Notes: generated from the sequence alone by a model not told the origin. A stretch of DNA of 64,000 bases from Escherichia coli O157:H7 str. 2011EL-2287 (GCA_000614405.2 GCA_000614405.2_3612.1); one strand, 5' to 3'. Shown: positions 6,566 through 61,370, numbered from the stretch's first letter. Numbers and translations: made by a program.

Positions 6566-9500
6566 ATGCTTCCAATCCCTTTGCTAAAACTTGGTCGTCA
6601 TTTCCTCGATAAGAGGGGTGGAATTAAGGAACTTGCTGTTCTGTCATACCCAATAGACAACAGTGATGGTACAAGCAACACAGTATCCTATGTAAATAGC
6701 TTAGCTATACTTTTTGATGATGGTCAGCTTAATATTACTGGCTATAATAGGTTCGGAGAGTGTCGGACTGGAGATCTTGATACAATAAACTATCCTAATG
6801 AGGCAGCTTGGAACGTAGACCATGTTTGGAGAGCTGACCGTGCATTTGTAATCCGCACATTCGATAATAAATTTTTCTATATTGGTTGCACAGCTGGTCT
6901 TATCGGATCGGAGGCAGCAGGTGGAAACGATGTTTGTGTCAGAGAGTGGACACCTTTGCCGGAACAGATCGTAACAGGGTTGCATTTGGACACCCATCCT
7001 GAGAGACTTGTTGAAGTAATGGGTGGCGTAAACAATACAGTGTGGGTAATTGCTGCACCAGAGGCTGATGGTATGCTTCACCTGTACGGCTCTGGCAATA
7101 ATACTTACGGCTCTCTTCATGTTGACAAAAGTCAACACGCTACTCCAGTTAAGATAGGTGAAACATCTGAAAGTCCAGAGACAGGTCCTTGGAAAAATCC
7201 AAGAATTAATTGTGAAGTTCATGACAACTCGGTTATTTTTGGTGGTCCTAACGGATTCTGGATTGCAGGTTATGATTTCTTAAGAAATAACAGCAAAAAC
7301 ACACTAGTTTATCCAGCCGAGCATGTGACTCTTGACCAGTTTAAAGGCATCCCGGTGGGCGAGACATGGAAAGGGTTCATGTGTGGACCTAATGGTGCAA
7401 TTATAGCCACAGAAAGGATGCACAAACCTGATGACCAACAGCTTGTTAATGTGTTTTATGGTCAGGATGTTTGGGGTGACGACACGTGGAGAAGCCTTAA
7501 CATCACCTATACCCATGAAGTAATTATGGCTCGCGGGTACGGGACTAGTGGAATTTTCTTCAATAATGGTACAAAACAGTACCGTGGTTTCTCCAGAAAC
7601 CTGTGTAACGATATTGGTGCTCAATCTGCTAATAATAGTCCTAGGGCCAATTTTATTCATTACAGAGCGCTGGCAACAGCTAAGTTTGTTGAACAGACAG
7701 AGCCAGTAAGCTGGACAGAAAGCGTTTATTTTCAAGGGATCCACAGGGAAGGTTTCTTAGGCACATTCTGTGTGGTAAATGGAAAGCTTTGGTGGTCAGG
7801 AATACCACGTGGTAGTTTTTCAGGATCTAATAACCTCTTTGGCGGCAGACTTAACAGCCAAGGGTTCACAGAGATTCCGGAGAATTGGTATAAAAATGTC
7901 CCGGTAGATAGCTGGGGTATCGAAGACATCTTTGATGTCAATGGTGTGAGCAATGTTAGCAACATTTACATCGGAGATACTGTCAAGATGAAATTGAAAC
8001 CTCAGCCGGAGGGTGCTACGTTCATTATTGACAAGATTGAGTTGGTAAATGCTGCAGGCACTGTTGTTACAGATGCAAACTATCAGTTCTCCACTAACTG
8101 GAACCATGGTGGTGCTAACGAAGTTGTGGTCACCCAGTATAACCGTAACATCAACAGACGTGGTTTGTATTCTATCAAGATCACCTACCATGACAAGCAT
8201 GGCACTGGAAGAACCTATACGACAAGGACTTTGAACTGGAACACTATAGTTCCTGCGTATCCGTCCAACGGCAAGTGGCATACCGTTGGTAGAAACAAGC
8301 AGTTCCATGTTAACGATACTGTATACTTTGGGCTGAATGGGACCCAGCCTGCAGTAGAAGGGGATACATCGTATATGGTCAGACTCCACAGAATGGATGC
8401 TGGATCAGTCACTTATGATGTGACCCAAGAGATCTACGATCAAAGACGCGCCACGTATGACAATATTGTGAAAACACAAGCCTTGTGGGAGTTCAATCCT
8501 AATGGCAAGGGTGGTAAAATGTTGCAGGTTAATGAGCAGAACGGAACGTCGTTGACTGTTCACGAACACCCAGACCCTTGGCCTGATCCTGGAAAACCTC
8601 ACCCGGGAGCTCGTACACTGAAAATTGTCAGCCATGATGCAGGATATTTCGGAATACGCTGGGAAGCTACAGTAAGATATGTCGACGGGACAACAAACAA
8701 CATAGGGATTACACTTGGCGGCACTAGTGAAGATAACTCGCTGAAAATTGCCTACACGCCCAGAGGTATCTCTATTGATAATATGGATGTTGTTCGCAAT
8801 GGCTACGGCGATGTGAATGTCAAAGTTACTCTTGGCGAACATCTTGGTGGGGAAAGGATCATCATGTATGCCTTTGATCATGATCCACGCACCAATGGAA
8901 CTTATGCAAATCAGGCATGGAGTTACCTGATAAATGCACCTGAGCCGAATACTAAAGAGTTCTACTATGGTATGAAGCGAGATGTGTGCAAGAAAACAGG
9001 AACACATGACTGGATTGCTATCTGCGTTAAAGATGAGCGCACAGCTTGGGATGAGCCTGTTAACAGATGGTTCATAGGTATTCCTACCAGAAGTGATAAG
9101 TATGTCGCAGAATATATTGTATGCATGGGCGGTACCAACCTAAACATGTGTTGGAACGAAGATGTAAACAAATACTCTGATTATGACTATATGAGGGATT
9201 ACTCTTGTAATTTGTGGTTTAACCAAACTACAGGTTACCCTCCAAGACAGGCAAGGGTAAATCCTGCAATCTTTACAGATACTCAGGTTTTCTTGACAAA
9301 ACAGGCAAACGAGGTTCAGACCTTCAAGAATAACTATGACCCTAACAAGTGGTTCTATAATTGTTACGGGGCATACTTTTGGGGGCCTGCTGAACTGCCT
9401 GACAGCGGTTCTTGCTTCGAGGCTGCAACCTACGGCAGCGACTATATCATGGGACAGGTCAAGAAGTACAAGATGATCCCAGGGCCTGAAACTTTAGGTA

Positions 9501-46689: not shown

Positions 46690-47088
46690 ATGAAAACCAC
46701 TACCTTTAATTTTGATAATGCGGACTTTTCTTTTTCTGATGTCAAGAACTGCCGCCGTGATCGTGGATTTTACAAGGCTTATAATCTGGTGGGCCTGGAC
46801 GATGACAATAATTTGCACGAAGTAGCTGAGATCCGGTATTATGCCGCCGCCAGTGGTAACACTCACTACTGCGTGTTTTGGATTCACGACAACAAGAACA
46901 ATAAGTACGGTTATACTGGCGGCAAGGCGAGCGGTCACGGTTACGATAAAGCTAACGCAGCACTTGAGAGTGCATTAAATGCTATGGGGATCACTGCCGA
47001 CGGCTGGATCTACGAAGAAGAGTTTTTGTCGGCACTTGCTGACCACCTGGGCTATAAAAAGCACATTGTGACATGCGCCCACGAATAA
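46690..47088 (+). CDS. hypothetical protein
   Basis: RBS AAGAGGA; own promoter. Confidence 0.5.
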   Translation: MKTTTFNFDNADFSFSDVKNCRRDRGFYKAYNLVGLDDDNNLHEVAEIRYYAAASGNTHYCVFWIHDNKNNKYGYTGGKASGHGYDKANAALESALNAMGITADGWIYEEEFLSALADHLGYKKHIVTCAHE

Positions 47089-47102
47089 AAATCATTGACA
47101 CG

Positions 47103-47130
47103 CTGCAAAATTTAAGTAAACTAGACACAA
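47103..47130 (+). promoter_or_regulatory. sigma70-like promoter
   Basis: TTGACA-N16-TAAACT then leader hairpin GGCGGGAA-TGT-TTCCCGCC. Confidence 0.5.
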
Positions 47131-47170
47131 AAGGCGGGAATGTTTCCCGCCAGCACAAAGGAAAAAGATC

Positions 47171-47575
47171 ATGAATAAGAACGTACGCCGCATCATGAAC
47201 GAACTGGCAAACGATGAAAAAATTATTGACATGCACTTAGTGAACATTTGCCGCCGTTGTGTAACCTATAACAACCGCGCCGCAAAAGCGCGTGAGATGA
47301 ACGCAAAAGGCACCTTAAAGCCCTTCCAGGTGGTGGTAAAGGCCATTAAAGATGTAGCTAATACGGCAAACCAGGTACAGGGGAACACCAACGAGAGTAC
47401 CAATATTGATCCGGCTTACATCATGAAACGGATCCGGACCTGCAAGAACAAAGAGCAAGTGTATAACGTCATAGACTGGTTGGATTCCATGGGCGACGTG
47501 GTTTATAATAGGTTTTCTGCAGCCATTGAGATCCAGCTAGACAGGTTGGACGGGAAAGTACTAAAAACTTATTGA
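47171..47575 (+). CDS. hypothetical protein
   Basis: RBS AAAGGAAAAAG; own promoter and leader hairpin. Confidence 0.5.
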   Translation: MNKNVRRIMNELANDEKIIDMHLVNICRRCVTYNNRAAKAREMNAKGTLKPFQVVVKAIKDVANTANQVQGNTNESTNIDPAYIMKRIRTCKNKEQVYNVIDWLDSMGDVVYNRFSAAIEIQLDRLDGKVLKTY

Positions 47576-47576
47576 G

Positions 47577-47623
47577 TTTATTTTTAGATGGCCTTGACTC
47601 CAGGGCCATCGATAAAGTAAACT
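47577..47623 (+). repeat. promoter-stem-loop repeat (PeSL-like) copy 1
   Basis: TTTATTTTTAGATGGCCTTGACTCCAGGGCCATCGATAAAGTAAACT; hairpin GATGGCC/GGCCATC with TTGACT in loop. Confidence 0.55.
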
Positions 47624-47655
47624 AATCTCAGTTAAGCGAAAAAGGGGGCTTTAAG

Positions 47656-47775
47656 ATGGGCACTACACGCCAATACACAAAGGTAACTATTATCGTCTGC
47701 GTTGTCGGTTACATCCTGGCGCAAATGTTAATGAGTAGCGCTAACAGTTTTGCAAAATTTTTCTTAAATTTTTAA
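47656..47775 (+). CDS. hydrophobic micro-protein (39 aa)
   Basis: Below ORF-track threshold; RBS AAAGGGGG; central hydrophobic stretch VTIIVCVVGYILAQML. Confidence 0.35.
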   Translation: MGTTRQYTKVTIIVCVVGYILAQMLMSSANSFAKFFLNF

Positions 47776-47803
47776 TTGACAAGCTAACTTAGATCGGTAT
47801 ACT
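47776..47803 (+). promoter_or_regulatory. sigma70-like promoter
   Basis: TTGACA-N16-TATACT; leader hairpin GGGAA-AAC-TTCCC. Confidence 0.5.
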
Positions 47804-47854
47804 TAAACCCGTAAACGGGAAAACTTCCCAGAACACACAAAAGGAGAAAACACC

Positions 47855-48196
47855 ATGACCACTATGACCGCCGCAGAAAAAGCTATTCAGGTTGCCGCAC
47901 TGAAAAAACAGATCGCAGACCTTGAGAACAAGATCGATACCTTTGAAATCGACGAGGACAAGTACGACGAAAACTATGATGAATGGTTAGACGAGATCTA
48001 CGGAGAAATCATGATCGGAAACATTTCTTTTCTTCCGTCGCGTATCCTCAAGGAGCTAGATCCTATCGCTTACCGCTGCGGATTTAGCGACTACATCGAC
48101 AGCCTGGATATTGAGGACGATGAAGAATACCAGGAATTACAGACAGAGTTAGAAGAAGCAAAAGAAGAGCTTGCGGAGCTGGAAGAAAACGAGTAA
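47855..48196 (+). CDS. hypothetical acidic protein
   Basis: RBS AAGGAGAAAA; Glu/Asp-rich C-terminal half. Confidence 0.5.
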   Translation: MTTMTAAEKAIQVAALKKQIADLENKIDTFEIDEDKYDENYDEWLDEIYGEIMIGNISFLPSRILKELDPIAYRCGFSDYIDSLDIEDDEEYQELQTELEEAKEELAELEENE

Positions 48197-48198
48197 GA

Positions 48199-48244
48199 TT
48201 ATTTTTAGATGGCCTTGACTCCAGGGCCATCAATAAAGTAAACT
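48199..48244 (+). repeat. promoter-stem-loop repeat (PeSL-like) copy 2
   Basis: Near-identical to 47577 element (single G/A difference). Confidence 0.55.
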
Positions 48245-48285
48245 TTATACTGTTAACACTGAACTAATGCATAGGAGTTAAAACC

Positions 48286-48531
48286 ATGGCAGCACTAATC
48301 ACCAAATATTATGCCCCTACCAACACCAAAAGCGCCCGTATCATGGTAAAAGGCTTCGGACGTAAAAAGGTTTACACCTGGGATTATGCCTTAGACACGG
48401 AAGACAACTACACCAACGCGATGACAGATTTTATTAATGAGCTGAACACGCGGATCTTGACAAATTATAAAATTACCGATATTGCCTATATAGGGGAAGG
48501 CGGGATCTGTTTTGTCGGTATCGTCAAATAA
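48286..48531 (+). CDS. hypothetical protein
   Basis: RBS TAGGAG. Confidence 0.45.
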   Translation: MAALITKYYAPTNTKSARIMVKGFGRKKVYTWDYALDTEDNYTNAMTDFINELNTRILTNYKITDIAYIGEGGICFVGIVK

Positions 48532-48532
48532 G

Positions 48533-48580
48533 CTGTTTTTTCGGTGGTCCTGGTAGCAGGGCCATCTATAAAGATAGTTT
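48533..48580 (+). repeat. degenerate promoter-stem-loop-like element
   Basis: GGTCCTGGTAGCAGGGCCATCTATAAAG shares GGGCCATC-ATAAAG core with PeSL-like repeats. Confidence 0.3.
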
Positions 48581-48606
48581 ATCAACACAATGAAAGGAGA
48601 AAGTAC

Positions 48607-48960
48607 ATGATCAGCGGGGCAAGTTTTATTATTGGCGCTATTGCTACGGCTTTAATTGTAAACAAGATCCAATCTAAAAACGAAAAAGAGAGCAACGCGC
48701 TCACAGAATACCCATTTTGGGTATTCAACGACAATGAAGACTACATTATCAAGTACAAGAATGAGAAGGGCGACCAGGTAACACCGCGACCGATCCCGGC
48801 TTACAAGATGCAAGAAACACTATACCGCCTAAAGGCTGGAGGCGCAAAAATCGTAGACTTTTGGGGATATGATTGCAAGGATCAGGAGGTTATAAAGCGC
48901 CGTATCCGGGCTATTCAGGCCAATATTGAAGTTAGCAAGGGGGGAATATATGAAGATTAA
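48607..48960 (+). CDS. membrane protein
   Basis: ATG after AAAGGAGAAAG RBS; N-terminal helix ISGASFIIGAIATALIV (ORF track start 48544). Confidence 0.45.
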   Translation: MISGASFIIGAIATALIVNKIQSKNEKESNALTEYPFWVFNDNEDYIIKYKNEKGDQVTPRPIPAYKMQETLYRLKAGGAKIVDFWGYDCKDQEVIKRRIRAIQANIEVSKGGIYED

Positions 48961-49147
48961 TTTTGAGAAGATTGTAAAGCGATCTCATGATTCCGAAGAG
49001 CTGCCGGAACGACGCCAGCGTAACAATAAACTGAATAAGCCGAAAAGATTTGGGAAGATCTGGCGAAATCACTATGATCGCAAATTACCCAGCCTGCTTT
49101 TGGAACGTGAACGACAAGCGGAACGATACCGCCACAAAGACAAATAG
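48950..49147 (+). CDS. small basic protein
   Basis: ATG after AGGGGGGAATAT; Arg/Lys-rich; overlaps upstream gene end. Confidence 0.35.
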   Translation: MKINFEKIVKRSHDSEELPERRQRNNKLNKPKRFGKIWRNHYDRKLPSLLLERERQAERYRHKDK

Positions 49148-49154
49148 CAACCAA

Positions 49155-49184
49155 CGCCCCGCCATTGTGCGGGGTTTTTTATTT
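49155..49184 (+). terminator. rho-independent terminator
   Basis: Hairpin CCCCGC-CATTGT-GCGGGG + TTTTTT. Confidence 0.6.
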
Positions 49185-49328
49185 CTATCCTACGAATAGC
49201 GCCCCTGGTTGGCCCCACAAACGCCACAAAAGCCCCTACCTATGCAATCCCCTTTATTAACCTGAAAACATCACCCAGGGCCGTTTTATGGTGTTAAAAA
49301 ATATCATTGACAGTGATTTTATTTAAAG

Positions 49329-49357
49329 CTTGACACCTTGGAATAGTCCGGATATAC
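49329..49357 (+). promoter_or_regulatory. sigma70-like promoter
   Basis: TTGACA-N17-TATACT upstream of 49394 gene. Confidence 0.5.
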
Positions 49358-49393
49358 TAACCACATCAAAGCAAGAAGGAAGGAGTAAACGCC

Positions 49394-49654
49394 ATGCGTA
49401 AATTAAAAAATTTTGATAAAGTTGATGTTGTCCTGAATAATTTTTACTACTGCAATAACAAGGCCATTTGGTGGCGTGATAGTTCCACCGATAAAGTCAA
49501 GGCGCGCTTTCTCCAGGGGCACTGGCAAGGCCGTCCAGTGATTAAAATCATGGGGCAATTGGTAGCGTTTAAAAATTGCCGCCGTGTTGATGACGTTGAA
49601 GAGATTTTAAGCATTTTGCGCCACAATAATTTAAAAAATAGTGTTGACAAGTAA
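49394..49654 (+). CDS. hypothetical protein
   Basis: RBS AAGGAAGGAG. Confidence 0.45.
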   Translation: MRKLKNFDKVDVVLNNFYYCNNKAIWWRDSSTDKVKARFLQGHWQGRPVIKIMGQLVAFKNCRRVDDVEEILSILRHNNLKNSVDK

Positions 49655-49671
49655 ATCTCGATAAGTATACT
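49644..49671 (+). promoter_or_regulatory. sigma70-like promoter
   Basis: TTGACA-N16-TATACT; leader hairpin GGCGGGAA-AAC-TTCCCGCC. Confidence 0.5.
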
Positions 49672-49728
49672 TAAACACACAGGCGGGAAAACTTCCCGCC
49701 ACTAACAAAGAAAATAGGAGAAAATATC

Positions 49729-50352
49729 ATGACCACCGTTAACATTACCACAGGTTACAATTTATCTTTCGACGTGCTGACCGATGAACAAAAAGAAAAA
49801 GCTATTGAAATGGTCCGCGAAAGAGAAGAACACAGCGGGGATAACTTTTTTGCAGAAAGTGTAATTGAAGACTATAAAGAACATATCTTTCCAGAGTATG
49901 GCCTTGAAGATACCAAGGTACATTGGTCCGGCTTTTGGTGCCAGGGCGACGGCGCGTCAATCAGTGCGGAAAACGTGGATTTAGAAAAATTCTTGCGTAA
50001 AGTCAAGTCTCTGACTAAATTCCGCTCAATTCGTCACTTGTTCGGCACAATGCACGATGGCGAGCTATCCGCAAGTGTTGAGCGTGATCCATATAGCCGC
50101 TATAGTCACGAAAATACTGTGAGCGGGTACATCGATACTACATGGCTAGACCTGACAGCCAAGCAAGAAAGTAAGGTTGAAGAGCTGGAAGAGTTGATCA
50201 CCGAGAACGTACGGGAACTATCCCGCAAGGTTTACGTAGACCTGGAGCAAGCTTATCTTGAACAATTTACTACCGAAAACCTGATCGGCCTTATCGAGGC
50301 CAATGATTGGCGGTTTGATGTGGATGAATATGGAGAGATGAGTTTTTCATAA
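49729..50352 (+). CDS. hypothetical protein
   Basis: 207-aa ORF, RBS TAGGAGAAAA. Confidence 0.5.
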   Translation: MTTVNITTGYNLSFDVLTDEQKEKAIEMVREREEHSGDNFFAESVIEDYKEHIFPEYGLEDTKVHWSGFWCQGDGASISAENVDLEKFLRKVKSLTKFRSIRHLFGTMHDGELSASVERDPYSRYSHENTVSGYIDTTWLDLTAKQESKVEELEELITENVRELSRKVYVDLEQAYLEQFTTENLIGLIEANDWRFDVDEYGEMSFS

Positions 50353-50360
50353 ATAAAGTG

Positions 50361-50388
50361 TTGCAATAATCTAAAAACCTGCTATATT
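50361..50388 (+). promoter_or_regulatory. sigma70-like promoter
   Basis: TTGCAA-N16-TATATT; leader hairpin GGGGCAA-GACG-TTTGCCCC. Confidence 0.45.
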
Positions 50389-50442
50389 AAAACTCAAGGG
50401 GCAAGACGTTTGCCCCCCACACAAAACAAAGAGGAAAACATC

Positions 50443-50823
50443 ATGAAAAACACTACTAAAGCTATTGACACCGTCATGTTTAACCTGGTTACCTTTCGCG
50501 AGGATATGAAAGATCTTCCACGTGAAACAGTGTGCGATCACATTGAAAACTATCGCAAACTAATCAAAGAGTTGCCTTTAAAACGTGATCAGTATGCGGC
50601 TAACGCCATGCTTAATGCCATGATCAAAAAGATGATCCAGTGTGATTTAACTCTGGCCTATGACTATGCGGGTGGTCGTTTTGCAGTATACAATCAGCCC
50701 GTGCCCGGTATGGGCACCACCGAAGAATTGCACGCGTTAAATCTGAAGCAAGATGTATGGGATAACATGCCCCGCGTGGTGGTGTGGGCAGAAAGCGGAA
50801 AGATTTACGGCGATAATTTTTAA
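50443..50823 (+). CDS. hypothetical protein
   Basis: ATG after AAAGAGGAAAACATC leader (ORF track start 50410 lies within the leader hairpin). Confidence 0.45.
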   Translation: MKNTTKAIDTVMFNLVTFREDMKDLPRETVCDHIENYRKLIKELPLKRDQYAANAMLNAMIKKMIQCDLTLAYDYAGGRFAVYNQPVPGMGTTEELHALNLKQDVWDNMPRVVVWAESGKIYGDNF

Positions 50824-50832
50824 TCAGGTAAC

Positions 50833-50860
50833 AGGCGGCATATTTGCCGCCTTATTGTTA
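50833..50860 (+). terminator. putative terminator hairpin
   Basis: AGGCGGCA-TATT-TGCCGCCT followed by TATTGTT. Confidence 0.45.
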
Positions 50861-50887
50861 AACAGAGTTGCAAAAGAGGTACATAGA

Positions 50888-51259
50888 ATGGAATTTATTA
50901 TTTTGGCTGTAGTAGTTGCCTTGTTCAACGCCTGGATAGCTGGCAAAATAGGTAGATCCGCTTTTCTATGGTTTGTTATATCTATTTTCCTGGGAGTGGT
51001 TGCAACCATTGTACTAGTTATCCTTGCAATTGTTGACAAGGATAATAATAAGAAGGGTAAAGTATTTTCCGACCTGTATGACGCCCAAACTTTTGTTAAC
51101 GCCTATTATAGTGATCTTCCGGTCTCCTTGCGCTGCAGCCTGGCGCAACAAGTTTTTGATGAGGCTAAAACCAGAGATCAAGCCCATGAGATATGTTTAA
51201 CTGAGGCGGATCGCCTATTTGAGAGGAATAGAAAATATGTGGGCCAGCCGTTTAAATAA
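50888..51259 (+). CDS. membrane protein
   Basis: ATG after AAAAGAGG; two predicted TM helices (ORF track start 50753). Confidence 0.45.
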   Translation: MEFIILAVVVALFNAWIAGKIGRSAFLWFVISIFLGVVATIVLVILAIVDKDNNKKGKVFSDLYDAQTFVNAYYSDLPVSLRCSLAQQVFDEAKTRDQAHEICLTEADRLFERNRKYVGQPFK

Positions 51260-51482
51260 TACCACGTTAATTAATCCCTTTAATGAAGATTTGAAGCCAG
51301 CCGCCTGGCGTGATGGATTCAATAACGAACGCTTTATTTTCAGGCCTGATCTTGAGGAATTTTATAACAATGGATCGAACAACGACAGAGATAATTTTTC
51401 TTGTGATGTGCGTGGTGATGGTACTCCTGGGGGACATTGTAAACCACGTCACTACTACCAGGAGGAAAGGGGGAGACGATGA
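51237..51482 (+). CDS. hypothetical protein
   Basis: ATG after AGAGGAATAG; overlaps 3' end of upstream gene; start uncertain. Confidence 0.3.
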   Translation: MWASRLNNTTLINPFNEDLKPAAWRDGFNNERFIFRPDLEEFYNNGSNNDRDNFSCDVRGDGTPGGHCKPRHYYQEERGRR

Positions 51483-51598
51483 CAACCAAGGATAAGCCCC
51501 GCACCGATAAGGTGCGCCAGGTTATGGTATGGCTTGAGATCATCGCCCTTGAAATATTGTTAGGGGTAGGAATGTACTTTATTGCTATAAGTAACTGA
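51479..51598 (+). CDS. hydrophobic micro-protein (39 aa)
   Basis: Below ORF-track threshold; ATGA overlap; RBS GAAAGGGGGAG; TM segment WLEIIALEILLGVGMYFIAI. Confidence 0.35.
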   Translation: MTTKDKPRTDKVRQVMVWLEIIALEILLGVGMYFIAISN

Positions 51599-51602
51599 TA
51601 AC

Positions 51603-51631
51603 GCCCCCGATCATGGGGGCTTAACTTTTTC
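51603..51631 (+). terminator. rho-independent terminator
   Basis: Hairpin GCCCCC-GATCAT-GGGGGC + TTAACTTTTT. Confidence 0.5.
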
Positions 51632-51653
51632 AAAAAATTTTTCTTCCAGGGTG

Positions 51654-51681
51654 TTGCAATCTGGTCCGCAATATGGATAAT
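51654..51681 (+). promoter_or_regulatory. sigma70-like promoter
   Basis: TTGCAA-N17-GATAAT; leader hairpin GGGGA-AACA-TCCCC. Confidence 0.4.
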
Positions 51682-51737
51682 AACAATCAACGGGGAAACA
51701 TCCCCACCAACACAAAAACCAGAAAGGAGAAACAAAA

Positions 51738-51938
51738 ATGAGCAACAATATCCGCGTTATTAACTTCAAAAAAGAAGAAAAAATTGCCGTGCTGATTGAC
51801 GGTCAAGAAATCTTCAAGGGCGACTATGAAGATCATCAAACGGCGATTAGTATCACTCGCGTGATTGGTTACCATAATTTTTACCCCCAAGGCGCTGAGG
51901 CGGCGGTTAAACGAATCAAAGAGATTGTAGGCCTGTAA
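51738..51938 (+). CDS. hypothetical protein
   Basis: RBS AAAGGAGAAA. Confidence 0.45.
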   Translation: MSNNIRVINFKKEEKIAVLIDGQEIFKGDYEDHQTAISITRVIGYHNFYPQGAEAAVKRIKEIVGL

Positions 51939-51939
51939 A

Positions 51940-51985
51940 ATTTATTTTTAGATGGCCTTGACTCTAGGGCCATCAATAAAGTAAA
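51940..51985 (+). repeat. promoter-stem-loop repeat (PeSL-like) copy 3
   Basis: TTTATTTTTAGATGGCCTTGACTCTAGGGCCATCAATAAAGTAAAT; near-identical to copies at 47577 and 48199. Confidence 0.55.
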
Positions 51986-52031
51986 TTTAAACCCTGTTAA
52001 AATACCACGCAGTTAACAAGGAGTGATAGAC

Positions 52032-52331
52032 ATGTTTATCCAGGCTAATAATCTTTATTTCTTTGATGGTCAGATCGTAGATGGTGTGGAAGTGGAGATC
52101 ACTGGGTGCCCTGGTGGTCAGGCTATGACTTTTCGGAATAATGCCTTTGATGATTCTCATATCGTTATGAGAATGGAAGTTACAAAGCTGGACGACAAGA
52201 AAACGCTCATTGACTATTCCGTGAAAGATCATCCAGACTACCACATGATCTATGGTGATTTGTGCATTGTTGACCGTGACAAGGTGGGCGGCATTGTGAT
52301 CGCTATTGTGAACGATGTTTTCTCTGTATAG
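52032..52331 (+). CDS. hypothetical protein
   Basis: ATG after AAGGAG (ORF track start 52023). Confidence 0.45.
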   Translation: MFIQANNLYFFDGQIVDGVEVEITGCPGGQAMTFRNNAFDDSHIVMRMEVTKLDDKKTLIDYSVKDHPDYHMIYGDLCIVDRDKVGGIVIAIVNDVFSV

Positions 52332-52389
52332 TTCCGGCAAATGATGCAAAATAAGGCCCCTAGCAGGGCCTGCAGCGATATAATCACAT

Positions 52390-52425
52390 AAAGGCCATGC
52401 GGTTGCATGGCCTTTATTATTTTGG
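52390..52425 (+). terminator. rho-independent terminator
   Basis: 10-bp stem AAGGCCATGC-GGTT-GCATGGCCTT + TATTATTTT. Confidence 0.65.
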
Positions 52426-52471
52426 CGTTACAACGGCCTCCAAGGCGCTTAAAAATTTTTTAAAGAAGTAC

Positions 52472-52500
52472 TTGCATCAAGCCCTACAATATGGATAATA
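52472..52500 (+). promoter_or_regulatory. sigma70-like promoter
   Basis: TTGCAT-N17-GATAAT; leader hairpin GGGGGC/GCCCCC. Confidence 0.4.
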
Positions 52501-52552
52501 GTACGTGTCAGGGGGCGGCCCCCAATCATTAACAGAAACAGGAGTTAAAACT

Positions 52553-52837
52553 ATGGCTATTGTTACCGCTGGCGATGTAGTAGAAATGGAAGCAAAATAC
52601 TTAAAAGCGGGTATGCATATCCTGCGCAACGATCTTGAACTGGTCTTGACAATGGTTGACTATAACCCAGGGCAAGATTATCCAAGTGTTGACTACTTTT
52701 TTGAGTATGTTGATGAAGAGTTGAAAGAGGATGAGGCCTATTGCGGTGAGTTCTGCAACTTCTTTTGTCCTGATGAGGTTGTAAAGGTTATCTATCAACC
52801 TGGCGTAGCTTTCCCGCTGCACGCTATCAATAAATAA
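52553..52837 (+). CDS. hypothetical protein
   Basis: ATG after ACAGGAG (ORF track start 52505). Confidence 0.45.
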   Translation: MAIVTAGDVVEMEAKYLKAGMHILRNDLELVLTMVDYNPGQDYPSVDYFFEYVDEELKEDEAYCGEFCNFFCPDEVVKVIYQPGVAFPLHAINK

Positions 52838-52899
52838 ACCTGGCGGGGCCGAAAAGGCCTCCGCCTGAAATTATGAAAAATAAAAAGAGGCAAACTATC

Positions 52900-53130
52900 A
52901 TGATGGAACAAATTAAACGCGCTGAGGCTATTAATGGCAATGTGATCTATTTTGTCAGCAATAACGAAAAAGGCGTACCATATGCGGCGGTAATAGTACA
53001 GCCTGACGGCGATTATTGGTTTACTGTGTACGGCGCTTACTCTTTTGGGCGTCCAGTGCATGATAAAATTTTGAAAGTAGCGAACCCTACCGGGAAGAAT
53101 ATCACAGCAGAAAAATTTTTTGAAAAATAG
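52900..53130 (+). CDS. hypothetical protein
   Basis: ATG after AAAAGAGG (ORF track start 52873). Confidence 0.45.
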   Translation: MMEQIKRAEAINGNVIYFVSNNEKGVPYAAVIVQPDGDYWFTVYGAYSFGRPVHDKILKVANPTGKNITAEKFFEK

Positions 53131-53158
53131 TTGACATGGCCTTATAAGACTGTAGAAT
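53131..53158 (+). promoter_or_regulatory. sigma70-like promoter
   Basis: TTGACA-N16-TAGAAT; leader hairpin GGGGGC-AACAA-GCCCC. Confidence 0.5.
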
Positions 53159-53210
53159 ATAAATCAAAGGGGGCAACAAGCCCCACCAACCACAAAGAGG
53201 ATAAAAAATC

Positions 53211-53390
53211 ATGGCTATTATTGCAAAGACTGAGATCGTAGGCTTAGATTCTATTCTCCTCGCATATGAGGAAGCTATAGAAATGTATGTGGTTTCCTAT
53301 GGTGAATATATCCGTGAATATAAATCTATTGATCTGGCTTTTGAATGTTATATTCGCCAGGTTAATAAAGCGTACGATGATTATCGTTAA
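53211..53390 (+). CDS. small hypothetical protein (59 aa)
   Basis: Below ORF-track threshold; RBS AAAGAGGATAAAAAATC. Confidence 0.35.
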   Translation: MAIIAKTEIVGLDSILLAYEEAIEMYVVSYGEYIREYKSIDLAFECYIRQVNKAYDDYR

Positions 53391-53480
53391 AATAGCTTGA
53401 CAACAAACAACCATCTAACAAAGCATAATACATAAGGCGGTGGAATGGTCCGCCACCTGGAACAAGAAGAGGAAAACAAG

Positions 53481-53585
53481 ATGAAACAGAAATTAATTGA
53501 TGCGGTGATCCTGGTTATTGCCCTGGGTATTGGCCTGATTGCAACCATGTCTAATATGATCTTGTCTTCCAACGGTATCGGGTGA
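53481..53585 (+). CDS. hydrophobic micro-protein (34 aa)
   Basis: RBS AAGAGGAAAA; single TM-like segment AVILVIALGIGLIATM. Confidence 0.35.
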   Translation: MKQKLIDAVILVIALGIGLIATMSNMILSSNGIG

Positions 53586-53594
53586 GGTTGGCAA

Positions 53595-53810
53595 ATGATC
53601 ACTAACAAAACAGGCAAAACAGAATTTTTACGCAACTTACAGATCGGCAAGCCTGAGATCTGGTATTGCACTAAAACACCACGTGACGAAATGAAAGACT
53701 TCACCGCCACGCTGCAACGGGTAAAGATATCCATCACGCAGAAAAAGGCCTTATTAGTGGTGGAAGGTGAGATCCCCCAAACCGTTGTTATAGTTGAGCG
53801 TACAGCATAG
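53595..53810 (+). CDS. hypothetical protein
   Basis: ORF with RBS GGTGAGG. Confidence 0.4.
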   Translation: MITNKTGKTEFLRNLQIGKPEIWYCTKTPRDEMKDFTATLQRVKISITQKKALLVVEGEIPQTVVIVERTA

Positions 53811-53901
53811 TTTAATTTATACCGATACCCGAAAATTAACCAACAAAGCATAAACAGGCGGTTACCGCCGCCTTAAACGTAGCAGAAAGAGGATAGACAC
53901 A

Positions 53902-54186
53902 ATGAAAAAGATGATCGCAGCGGTTGCCCTGGTTGTTGGACTTAATGCGCCTGTAATGGCTAAAGAGCTGGCAAAAGAGGTTAATCTAACGGATATTCAT
54001 GCCGTCAATCAAATCGGGGTTACTTATCGCTTATGCCTTGCCGCTAAAACTTTCCAGGACGGCACGACAGAGTACTACGGATTCGAGGGTATCCGGTGCG
54101 GTGAGCTTGCTCGCGACCTTAAGGAAGATCCAGACCTGGAAGATCTGCCCATCACCGTAAACGGTAAAGCTTACGTAAACCGTTAA
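53902..54186 (+). CDS. secreted small protein
   Basis: Signal-peptide-like N-terminus MKKMIAAVALVVGLNAPVMA; RBS AAAGAGGA. Confidence 0.45.
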   Translation: MKKMIAAVALVVGLNAPVMAKELAKEVNLTDIHAVNQIGVTYRLCLAAKTFQDGTTEYYGFEGIRCGELARDLKEDPDLEDLPITVNGKAYVNR

Positions 54187-54188
54187 CC

Positions 54189-54323
54189 ATGAGAAAGATA
54201 ATCATCACCTTGGGGATTGTGGCGGGATCGCTGGCGCTCTTTCCCATTATGGTTAGGTATGTGCTGATCAGTATTGTCCTGGTAGTCAGTGATCTATTGG
54301 AAACGGTTGGCACCTTGTTTTAA
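54189..54323 (+). CDS. hydrophobic micro-protein (44 aa)
   Basis: Start overlaps upstream stop region; two hydrophobic stretches; weak RBS. Confidence 0.3.
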   Translation: MRKIIITLGIVAGSLALFPIMVRYVLISIVLVVSDLLETVGTLF

Positions 54324-54342
54324 AGAGCGATAAAAAAAAAAA

Positions 54343-54534
54343 ATGAATGTCGAACAAGTTAGAAAGGTATTGGCGGTACTGCGTTATCATAATCATAGAA
54401 AGGTCATAGACGATCCTGATTATGTCGATTCAAACCTGGAAGAGGATACACTACAAGCCATAAGTAACATGCAAGAATTGCTAAAGCGCATGACAGAGAA
54501 AAACCGACCGGACTACATAGGCGAAAAAATATAA
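54343..54534 (+). CDS. hypothetical protein
   Basis: ORF; weak RBS. Confidence 0.35.
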   Translation: MNVEQVRKVLAVLRYHNHRKVIDDPDYVDSNLEEDTLQAISNMQELLKRMTEKNRPDYIGEKI

Positions 54535-54550
54535 TATTTATAAACTACAA

Positions 54551-54580
54551 AACAGGGCTTGCAATGGTCCTGTTTTTTGT
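54551..54580 (+). terminator. rho-independent terminator
   Basis: Hairpin ACAGGGC-TTGCAATG-GTCCTGT + TTTTTT. Confidence 0.55.
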
Positions 54581-54593
54581 TATACTTATTCCA

Positions 54594-54640
54594 CGGCAGG
54601 CACCTGGCGACGGGGGAGACAATCACCGGGCCTGCCTGTC
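54594..54640 (-). repeat. GC-rich structured element (copy 3, inverted)
   Basis: Reverse complement GGCAGGCCCGGTGATTGTCTCCCCCGTCGCCAGGTGCCTGCCGT matches copy 1 (23 nt exact) and copy 2. Confidence 0.5.
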
Positions 54641-54661
54641 ATATAAGAACTATAAAAACCG

Positions 54662-54690
54662 TTGACATCTGCCATGGGGTGGGGTAACAT
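54662..54690 (+). promoter_or_regulatory. sigma70-like promoter
   Basis: TTGACA-N17-TAACAT; leader hairpin GGGCA-AAAG-TGCCC. Confidence 0.5.
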
Positions 54691-54744
54691 TTATCTTGAA
54701 GGGGCAAAAGTGCCCACACAACACCCAGGAGAGAGGAAAACATT

Positions 54745-55017
54745 ATGTCAAGCTGGATTAATCAAGAAGTCGAATCACGTTTTAATGCTATATGGGATCT
54801 CATCGAAAAAGAGGACGGAACATCAAGCCCCTACCTCAACAATTTGGAATTCCATTTTGTGGAAGCGATGAACGCAGAACATGATCACGAAGGTGGCGCA
54901 GATGAGTTCGCTAAAGGTTATGGCTTTAACAATGCCAACGAAATGATCGAGGCGGTAGTACTCCAGGCTGAGGAAGATTATCAATTAAAAACGCTTGAAT
55001 TCTGCCGCCGTAAGTAA
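54745..55017 (+). CDS. hypothetical protein
   Basis: RBS AGGAGAGAGG. Confidence 0.45.
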   Translation: MSSWINQEVESRFNAIWDLIEKEDGTSSPYLNNLEFHFVEAMNAEHDHEGGADEFAKGYGFNNANEMIEAVVLQAEEDYQLKTLEFCRRK

Positions 55018-60699: not shown

Positions 60700-60951
60700 T
60701 TAACGTTCTACAAAAATACCGTTCAGTTCAATAACCAGGAATTTCTGGTCTTCACTATCGTCTCGTGCCAGCACCTCACAGACGTATCGGTCATCCCCAT
60801 CATCATCGCAGTCAAATACAAGACTGAGGACTTTATCATGATAAACCTTCGCCACTACCGCCTCGTAAGTATTGCCGATTGTGAATCCAAGATAATCTCC
60901 GATGCATTTGACAACAACATGGTCGCCAGCATTCAAGTCAATCTTCGTCAT
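60700..60951 (-). CDS. small acidic protein
   Basis: ATG after AAGGAG RBS on - strand (ORF track extends to 61017); DCDDDGDD acidic patch. Confidence 0.4.
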   Translation of the reverse strand: MTKIDLNAGDHVVVKCIGDYLGFTIGNTYEAVVAKVYHDKVLSLVFDCDDDGDDRYVCEVLARDDSEDQKFLVIELNGIFVER

Positions 60952-61106
60952 TACTGCGCTCCTTGGGTAATAATACTGTATGTAAAACTTTAACCAGAGA
61001 TGTGAATAACGCCCCAAAACACACCGATAGCGCTAAAACAGACAAGGCCATCATTAAAGCTTCAGTAAAATCTGTCATTCCTCACCTCTTGTTAGTCACT
61101 ATACTA

Positions 61107-61370
61107 TCATTTATCCTTACCGTCAAGAACTTTTTTAAATCTTTCAGGGATATCTCCCGTTCTTAGATAGTTCATGACCTCACAAGGTTCCCACTTGAAT
61201 TTCTTACAAAGCAGGGCGGCTGATATTGTCTCATTGCGAAAAGAAAGGATATTAATATCCCATTCTGAGAACCCCAACTTCCGAAGGGTAGCTACAGAAA
61301 TCCTCACCGCAACCCAGCAGCAAAAACATGCAACAAACGCCACTGCTATAACCCACATCAGGATGTTCAT
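61107..61370 (-). CDS. membrane protein
   Basis: N-terminal TM helix ILMWVIAVAFVACFCCWVAV. Confidence 0.4.
   Translation of the reverse strand: MNILMWVIAVAFVACFCCWVAVRISVATLRKLGFSEWDINILSFRNETISAALLCKKFKWEPCEVMNYLRTGDIPERFKKVLDGKDK

Follow-up and report, generated by a model that had tools for sequence, protein, structure and literature searches.

Four hydrophobic micro-genes of an rV5-like coliphage are probably genuine and are proposed to encode small inner-membrane accessory proteins

Introduction

Small membrane proteins are an under-studied class of which virulent phages carry many, and the shortest of the corresponding open reading frames (ORFs) raise the question of whether they are genes at all and, if so, what kind of protein they encode. 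The question is addressed here for four ORFs in a 64,000-nucleotide stretch deposited under Escherichia coli O157:H7 str. 2011EL-2287 (GCA_000614405.2_3612.1; hereafter, the window), which derives from an rV5-like coliphage (Vequintavirus, Vequintavirinae). A first-pass annotation had picked out hydrophobic micro-ORFs starting at 47656, 51479, 53481 and 54189, and all four are indeed present on the plus strand, with 39, 39, 34 and 44 amino acids (aa), respectively; they are referred to below as A, B, C and D. Comparison with related loci indicates that A–D are likely to be genuine, translated genes of the phage, for which we propose a role as small inner-membrane accessory proteins. What is new in this analysis is the set of selection tests and the conservation across subfamilies, both of which add to an existing annotation. 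Neither a new kind of element nor a specific new mechanism is revealed, and the locus is an ordinary one for a large virulent phage.

Results and Discussion

Coding evidence in related loci

Twenty-nine related loci were fetched, and 14–17 of these were used per ORF. Every copy found is intact, begins with ATG and keeps its length, at 39 codons for A, 39–40 for B, 34 for C and 43–44 for D. The 39 codons of A are intact in 14 loci; in the divergent IMG/VR locus L004 the gene starts one codon later and has 38 codons. Intact copies of B, all with the WLEIIALEILLGVGMYFIA helix unchanged, were found in 15 loci, two of which (L004 and L018) have 3 nt inserted in frame. D is intact at 43–44 codons in 17 loci, Phapecoctavirus included.

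The substitutions that separate these copies show a synonymous excess in the proposed frame of each ORF. Omega is approximately 0.26 for A (p=1.4e-5), 0.19 for B (p=4.9e-5), 0.41 for C (p=5.2e-4) and 0.45 for D (p=1.9e-4). No significant excess was seen in the +1 and +2 frames of A–D, which contain stops in some phages. Four accepted neighbour genes, used as positive controls, gave omega values of 0.07–0.25, with 0.08 for ORF172. The intact copies, the frame-specific synonymous excess, the in-frame indel of B and the occurrence of C and D in a second phage subfamily together mark A–D as very probable protein-coding genes.

Two antisense ORFs on the minus strand (51340-51735 and 53387-51, the latter annotated in phage FFH2) were considered as genes and rejected, as the plus-strand genes that they overlap are under strong frame-specific purifying selection. 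In FFH2 (KJ190158, locus L014), ORF157 and ORF155 are annotated on the minus strand at 6994-7158 and 7415-7807, where other phages have C and ORF172 on the plus strand. Given the strength of selection on the plus strand, as seen in the omega of ORF172, both look like misannotations.

Hydrophobicity and predicted topology

The proposal of the first-pass annotation that the four peptides are hydrophobic agrees with a transmembrane (TM)-grade stretch in each: the best 17-residue Kyte–Doolittle window scores 2.36–2.78 across A–D, and a single transmembrane domain (TMD) has been published for the rV5 orthologues. By itself, such hydrophobicity is not rare. A score of at least 2.3 is reached by 6.7% of the 223 six-frame ORFs with ATG starts and 30–59 aa in the window, and equal hydrophobicity is found in 4 of the 10 small plus-strand ORFs that lie in gaps between longer plus-strand ORFs (46–56 kb), an enrichment with binomial P of about 0.003 (hand arithmetic from 4/10 versus 6.7%). 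The above-chance status of A–D comes from their conservation, that is, from the intact copies and the in-frame synonymous excess.

A–D are very probably real small membrane proteins, as judged from in-frame purifying selection, the constancy of start, stop and length, the presence of Shine–Dalgarno sequences or of translational coupling, and the single TMD published for the rV5 orthologues. All have fewer than 50 aa (34–44) and a predicted single TM helix, in keeping with the one TMD assigned to the rV5 orthologues by TMHMM and Phobius. Each peptide is dominated by one hydrophobic helix, and D may have two. According to the positive-inside rule they would insert in the E. coli inner membrane with the N-terminus in and the C-terminus out. 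The AlphaFold2 model of D is one continuous helix of residues 2–43 (predicted local distance difference test score, pLDDT, 92.5), which is compatible with either one or two spans.

Orthologues and earlier annotation

The 8-kb region 47000-55000, which is tightly packed with small plus-strand genes throughout, matched 231 phage records, with 96% identity to Escherichia phage navn and 93.5% to rV5. In rV5 (DQ832317), ORF193, ORF181, ORF173 and ORF170 stand where A, B, C and D stand in the window. Order, neighbours and lengths are the same, and the peptides share 70–100% aa identity; on this sequence evidence A–D are the orthologues of gp193, gp181, gp173 and gp170, respectively, from which they differ only as alleles. 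Profile searches against PHROGs covered the whole profile in each case, with E values of 3.5e-30 for A (phrog_16391), 8.2e-31 for B (phrog_13629), 2.2e-22 for C (phrog_14631) and 2.3e-26 for D (phrog_16005). All four are function-unknown families.

The gene order around A–D is shared by the annotated loci of rV5, navn, Gotham, A51.2, Mangalyan, JES2013 and SophiaRose. All four micro-ORFs are annotated in Gotham, JES2013 and SophiaRose, and most of them in Mangalyan, A51.2 and other relatives; A51.2 labels three of the four 'putative membrane protein'. The rV5 GenBank record, which carries the four ORFs, dates from 2006. In the genome paper by Kropinski et al. (2013, PMC3606486; Table S3), the entry 'membrane protein, 1 TMD', based on TMHMM and Phobius, is given to gp170 (44 aa), gp173 (46 aa), gp181 (39 aa) and gp193 (39 aa). 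A–D are thus already known, being annotated and, since 2013, published as predicted membrane proteins, and the earlier implication that such ORFs had been missed by annotation does not apply to rV5 or to most of its relatives.

Distribution and alleles

The phages phAPEC8, TSP7_1, phiWec181 and WPEC1 (Phapecoctavirus, Stephanstirmvirinae) carry both C and D as well, at 50–77% aa identity and beside the same flanking genes, and between the two subfamilies the two ORFs stay open and of the same length at identities of 50–57%. The block formed by ORF172, ORF171, D and ORF169 (window 53595-54534) recurs, whole or partial, in genomes of both Vequintavirus and Phapecoctavirus, with L020 (phAPEC8), L024, L025, L027 and L028 as the loci concerned. 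Database searches found B only in Vequintavirus-type phages; large-database searches with B and C returned only close Vequintavirus-type relatives, and scans of IMG/VR contributed few extra loci.

Within this set, C falls into two allele classes of about 53% aa identity that share length, hydrophobicity and tail. D has two C-terminal variants, ...SDLLETVGTLF in the window and ...SDLVLYINSLF in rV5, which arose by clustered substitutions and not by frameshifts. Murica and MiataMamis lack D, and NHEP1 and L004 lack C. The variable presence of these genes, and the swapped alleles of C and of the D C-terminus that lie beside flanking genes of 95–100% identity, give them the status of accessory genes.

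The C allele of several vequintaviruses that begins 'MLEKIF...' is nearly identical to the Phapecoctavirus allele, and its flanks follow Vequintavirus. The sequences suggest that this allele was exchanged recently between the two subfamilies.

Proposed role

Small bacterial proteins of the MgrB, AcrZ, MgtS and SgrT class have fewer than 50 aa and a single TM helix with the N-terminus in, and bind a larger membrane protein. A–D resemble this class in size, in their single predicted TM helix and in predicted orientation, but they are phage-encoded and show no sequence relation to it in Pfam or NCBIfam, and the class serves here as a working analogy. Among phage proteins, T4 Imm and Sp and HK97 gp15 are membrane-located exclusion or immunity proteins, early in T4 and made from the prophage in HK97. 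The likeness to A–D lies in being non-structural, membrane-located, dispensable and variable; these proteins are, however, about 2–3 times larger (Imm has 83 aa), and no homology was detected.

By analogy with these systems, we tentatively suggest as the most likely role that A–D help in host takeover as accessory factors, which would bind larger membrane proteins of the host or of the phage. Possible effects would be the blocking of secondary DNA entry (superinfection exclusion) or the alteration of a transporter or sensor. A would be expressed from a promoter-like module that is repeated in the window and of which it has a copy to itself, and B from the end of a transcription unit, while C and D would share one unit with a signal-peptide protein. 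A more specific version of the proposal, in which C, D and ORF171 make up an envelope-directed operon (53131-54549) with a core common to the myovirus subfamilies Vequintavirinae and Stephanstirmvirinae, and the micro-proteins are specific modulators of a host inner-membrane complex, is rather doubtful. Under that version, superinfecting phage DNA might be excluded, or a transporter or sensor rewired, and the swapped alleles (two C classes and two D tails) would reflect an arms race with the host target or with competing phages. With their status as genes better supported, A–D are worth including in screens for expression, toxicity and partners.

Alternative explanations

The four ORFs might instead be non-functional, either as chance ORFs or as coupling or leader ORFs, with a conservation that stems from recent ancestry or from overlapping DNA or RNA signals such as promoter UP elements, SD sequences or antisense features. 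Small hydrophobic ORFs do arise by chance (6.7–19% of six-frame small ORFs, depending on the threshold), the final codons of A (AAATTTTTCTTAAATTTTTAA) also serve as the A/T-rich stretch before the -35 element of the next promoter, antisense ORFs have been annotated in FFH2 instead of C and ORF172, and the omega of A–D lies above that of neighbour genes. None of this accounts well for a synonymous excess that is frame-specific and significant for all four ORFs, for the lack of a single disrupted copy in the 14–17 loci per ORF when the other frames contain stops, for an indel in B that preserves the frame, or for C and D remaining open at constant length over two subfamilies at barely more than half identity (50–57%); on the plus strand, the omega of ORF172 rules out the antisense ORF that covers this gene and C. 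As an intact, frame-specific and cross-subfamily pattern is not otherwise expected, chance ORFs and conservation at the nucleotide level only are rejected, and the non-functional explanation is left with a slim chance of being correct.

The first-pass annotation had also raised the possibility that the peptides are holin-like or membrane-perturbing, or that they are small regulatory membrane proteins; the last two may apply. A part in lysis, as holins, antiholins, pinholin-like proteins or other components of lysis timing, could be entertained for small TM peptides, all the more so as the holin of rV5 (gp129) is merely putative, no holin homologue having been found. In that phage the lysin gp89 is encoded at 71.6 kb and gp129 (78 aa, two TMDs, basic C-terminus) at 94.1 kb (PMC3606486). 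Coordinate mapping places the window on rV5 24.9-0 kb and 137.9-98.8 kb, and both genes thus fall outside it; A–D belong to a block of small genes rich in sigma-70-type promoters, far from the lysin. Holins of classes I–III and pinholins are usually about 60 aa or longer and expressed late, with a highly charged and usually basic hydrophilic domain at the C-terminus, and most adjoin the endolysin, although T4 t and gp129 do not. Beyond being small phage TM proteins, A–D have nothing of this size, tail, late expression or linkage to lysis genes (their timing being inferred from context): they have 34–44 aa and mostly one TMD, C and D are missing from natural isolates, none of the C-termini (SSANSFAKFFLNF, SN, SNMILSSNGIG and SDLLETVGTLF) is basic or rich in charge, and searches of Pfam, PHROGs and NCBIfam (E<=1) gave no match to a holin family. 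With the lysin and putative holin located elsewhere and no basic C-terminal tail, it is very unlikely that A–D are holins, and the holin-like label was not upheld. The main rival to specific modulation is that A–D are non-specific membrane-perturbing peptides, viroporin-like or type-I-toxin-like, whose early depolarisation or permeabilisation of the inner membrane would bring about host shut-off or exclude other phages. Their size and hydrophobicity are like those of the Hok, TisB and Ldr-type toxins, and two invariant Glu residues in the B helix and the invariant S-D-L of D could line an oligomeric pore. However, no toxin family (Hok, Ldr, TisB, Ibs, ShoB, Zor) matched A–D in Pfam or NCBIfam, early depolarisation would harm a phage that needs to replicate and package 130+ kb, and the four peptides are distinct, each with its own conserved non-hydrophobic motif (such as the C tail ATMxNxILSSxGIG), which points to specific contacts. 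Type I toxins are typified by an antisense RNA antitoxin of their own and a primary transcript that is translationally inert; three of the four ORFs carry accessible Shine–Dalgarno sequences. We consider non-specific perturbation unlikely.

Several points weigh against the reading of A–D as translated accessory membrane proteins. Substitution events were taken as the minimal count per codon column (a minimum-spanning approximation) and not from a phylogenetic model. The omega of C and D (0.41–0.45) is well above that of the neighbour genes (0.07–0.25), and the constraint on these two is accordingly moderate. For A, B and D, a degree of synonymous excess (p 0.001–0.011) was also seen in the antisense frame whose wobble positions coincide with those of the sense frame; these antisense signals are weaker than those of the sense frame, and the wobble-sharing frame is the only one that is partly significant, as expected. 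D may have one span or two: TMHMM and Phobius give one TMD for rV5 gp170 and AlphaFold2 gives one 42-residue helix, whereas a break at R23-Y24 could allow a hairpin. Mass spectrometry of rV5 was confined to virions, and the type of promoter and the arrangement of the genes suggest early expression. Searches of Pfam and NCBIfam with A–D, and of the PDB with B and D, found no homologue whose function is known, and the functional proposal is one of analogy only.

Searches for function

Scans of A–D and nine neighbour proteins against Pfam, NCBIfam and PHROGs returned only function-unknown PHROGs and sub-threshold Pfam noise (LPAM_1, DUF7396 and DUF6524). The assignment of D to DUF7396 was rejected as compositional similarity: against a gathering threshold of 27 bits, the top-scoring member reaches 17.7 bits (E 0.0042) and D of the window 12.3. 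The UniRef name 'DUF3096 domain-containing', carried by one D homologue, was likewise set aside, as it was not reproduced by hmmscan at E<=1. No significant hit came from PDB sequence searches with B, D or a profile of ORF171. A HMMER search with the D profile against 1.84 billion representatives yielded three clusters only, in line with phage-only hits, and since this exhaustive search gave no further family, a cellular relative of D is not apparent. The AlphaFold2 model of ORF171, calculated without an alignment, has a pLDDT of 48.

A literature search found no transcriptomic, ribosome profiling (Ribo-seq) or functional study of these rV5-like genes. The PhageMaP essentiality preprint was judged not applicable, as it concerns Bas63 and the vequintaviruses of the BASEL collection are Bas48-59; a paper on anthracyclines mentions vequintaviruses only as sensitive phages.

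Start sites and transcription units

The features of the locus are collected in Table 1. Shine–Dalgarno (SD) sequences precede A (AGGGGG, 7 nt upstream; AGGAGG in rV5), B (GGGGGAG, 3 nt) and C (GAGGA, 7 nt upstream of 53481), and none was found upstream of D at 54189. Three clear ribosome-binding sites had been claimed previously, and these are the three. The further claim that two of the ORFs overlap the upstream stop in an ATGA holds for B, with the TGA of ORF182, and not for D. The D start lies beyond the upstream TAA (54184-54186), and the TGA within its ATGA is not the stop of the upstream gene. At all examined loci where some gene precedes D, the D start is within 0–5 nt of the upstream stop, and in SYGMH1, which is without ORF171, D is placed behind the ORF171 SD. 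This arrangement suggests that D is probably translated by coupling to ORF171.

The annotations of rV5, Gotham and nom start C at the 53445 ATG, which gives a product of 46 aa. This longer form was rejected in favour of the 34-aa form because the SD is found only before 53481, the PHROG profile has 34 residues, and the ORF begins at the 53481 Met where a different gene or sequence lies upstream.

The region contains 31 promoter-like sites (19.9 +/- 4.6 expected) and 25 terminator-like sites (9.2 +/- 3.3 expected), and A–D would be transcribed by the host RNA polymerase from sigma-70-type promoters. The module before A spans 46 nt and consists of an A/T-rich stretch, a -35 element TTGACT, an 18-nt spacer and a -10 element TAAACT; its promoter part (47594-47623) matches at 9/12 positions, and a hairpin with a 7-bp stem (GATGGCC...GGCCATC) encloses the -35 element. 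Three copies are present in the window (47577-47623, 48198-48244 and 51941-51987), versus 0.01 expected, with the consensus TTATTTTTAGATGGCCTTGACTC(C/T)AGGGCCATC(A/G)ATAAAGTAAA(C/T)T. Every copy is located just past the stop of one gene and 30–45 nt ahead of the next start; the other two precede accepted genes at 48286 and 52023. The module lies at the same position upstream of A orthologues in seven loci (for example rV5, Mangalyan and JES2013), and the three copies keep their places in relatives. Such a module could be a regulated promoter specific to the phage, in which the hairpin or palindrome would serve as an operator or processing site.

The last codons of A (47737-47775; AAA TTT TTC TTA AAT TTT TAA) form an A/T-rich tract directly before the -35 element of the promoter at 47776, and the end of A may therefore be under a dual constraint, from the protein and from an UP-element-like signal.

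The terminator-like hairpin immediately after its stop makes B the last gene of its transcription unit; the Murica annotation also has a terminator there. The unit of C and D is bounded by the promoter at 53131 and the hairpin at 54549 and comprises ORF174, C, ORF172, ORF171, D and ORF169. ORF171 has a Sec-type signal-peptide-like N-terminus (MKKMIAAVALVVGLNAPVMA/KE, read by eye and not with a predictor) and two invariant Cys residues. As C and D are hydrophobic and ORF171 is signal-peptide-like, this unit is predicted to send three or more of its products to the envelope.

Table 1. Micro-genes A–D, neighbouring genes and predicted expression signals (window coordinates)
Feature	Position	Strand	Description
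Repeated promoter-like module before A	47577..47623	+	33 nt upstream of A
Micro-gene A	47656..47775	+	39 aa, MGTTRQYTKVTIIVCVVGYILAQMLMSSANSFAKFFLNF; rV5 ORF193 orthologue; phrog_16391
A topology			Predicted N-in single TM at ~residues 10-26, then 13-aa C-terminal tail
Strong promoter TTGACA-16-TATACT	47776..47803	+	11/12 match; sigma-70-type; directly after A stop; corresponds to rV5 P192
ORF182 orthologue	51237..51482	+	TGA stop overlaps ATG of B
Micro-gene B	51479..51598	+	39 aa, MTTKDKPRTDKVRQVMVWLEIIALEILLGVGMYFIAISN; rV5 ORF181 orthologue; phrog_13629
B layout			Charged N-terminus, then invariant WLEIIALEILLGVGMYFIA helix
Terminator-like hairpin	51603..51630	+	GCCCCCGATCATGGGGGC and T-rich tail; 4 nt past B stop
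Promoter TTGACA-16-TAGAAT	53131..53158	+	11/12 match; sigma-70-type; heads six-gene unit with C and D
Micro-gene C	53481..53585	+	34 aa, MKQKLIDAVILVIALGIGLIATMSNMILSSNGIG; rV5 ORF173 orthologue; phrog_14631
C layout			Single TM, then conserved tail ATM(A/S)N(M/A/V)ILSS(N/H)GIG
ORF172 orthologue	53595..53810	+	71 aa; phrog_5988; 9 nt after C; usually accompanies C
ORF171 orthologue	53902..54186	+	94 aa; phrog_9845; TAA stop 2 nt before ATG of D
Micro-gene D	54189..54323	+	44 aa, MRKIIITLGIVAGSLALFPIMVRYVLISIVLVVSDLLETVGTLF; rV5 ORF170 orthologue; phrog_16005; invariant S34-D35-L36
ORF169 orthologue	54343-54534	+	Last gene of unit with C and D
Terminator-like hairpin and T-run	54549..54586	+	After ORF169; closes unit with C and D

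Other observations

Some 20 unannotated records named 'Campylobacter phage' (MG0656xx, host C. jejuni) are 92–96% identical to the rV5-like region. These are probably E. coli phage sequences that were mislabelled or carried over in submission.

A fifth hydrophobic micro-ORF is located on the minus strand at 60938-61078 (46 aa, MTDFTEALMMALSVLALSVCFGALFTSLVKVLHTVLLPKERSNDED). Its location and length match those of rV5 gp156, which is described as 'membrane protein, 46 aa, 1 TMD'. Next to it on the same strand, an 87-aa ORF (61107-61370) begins with a hydrophobic helix.

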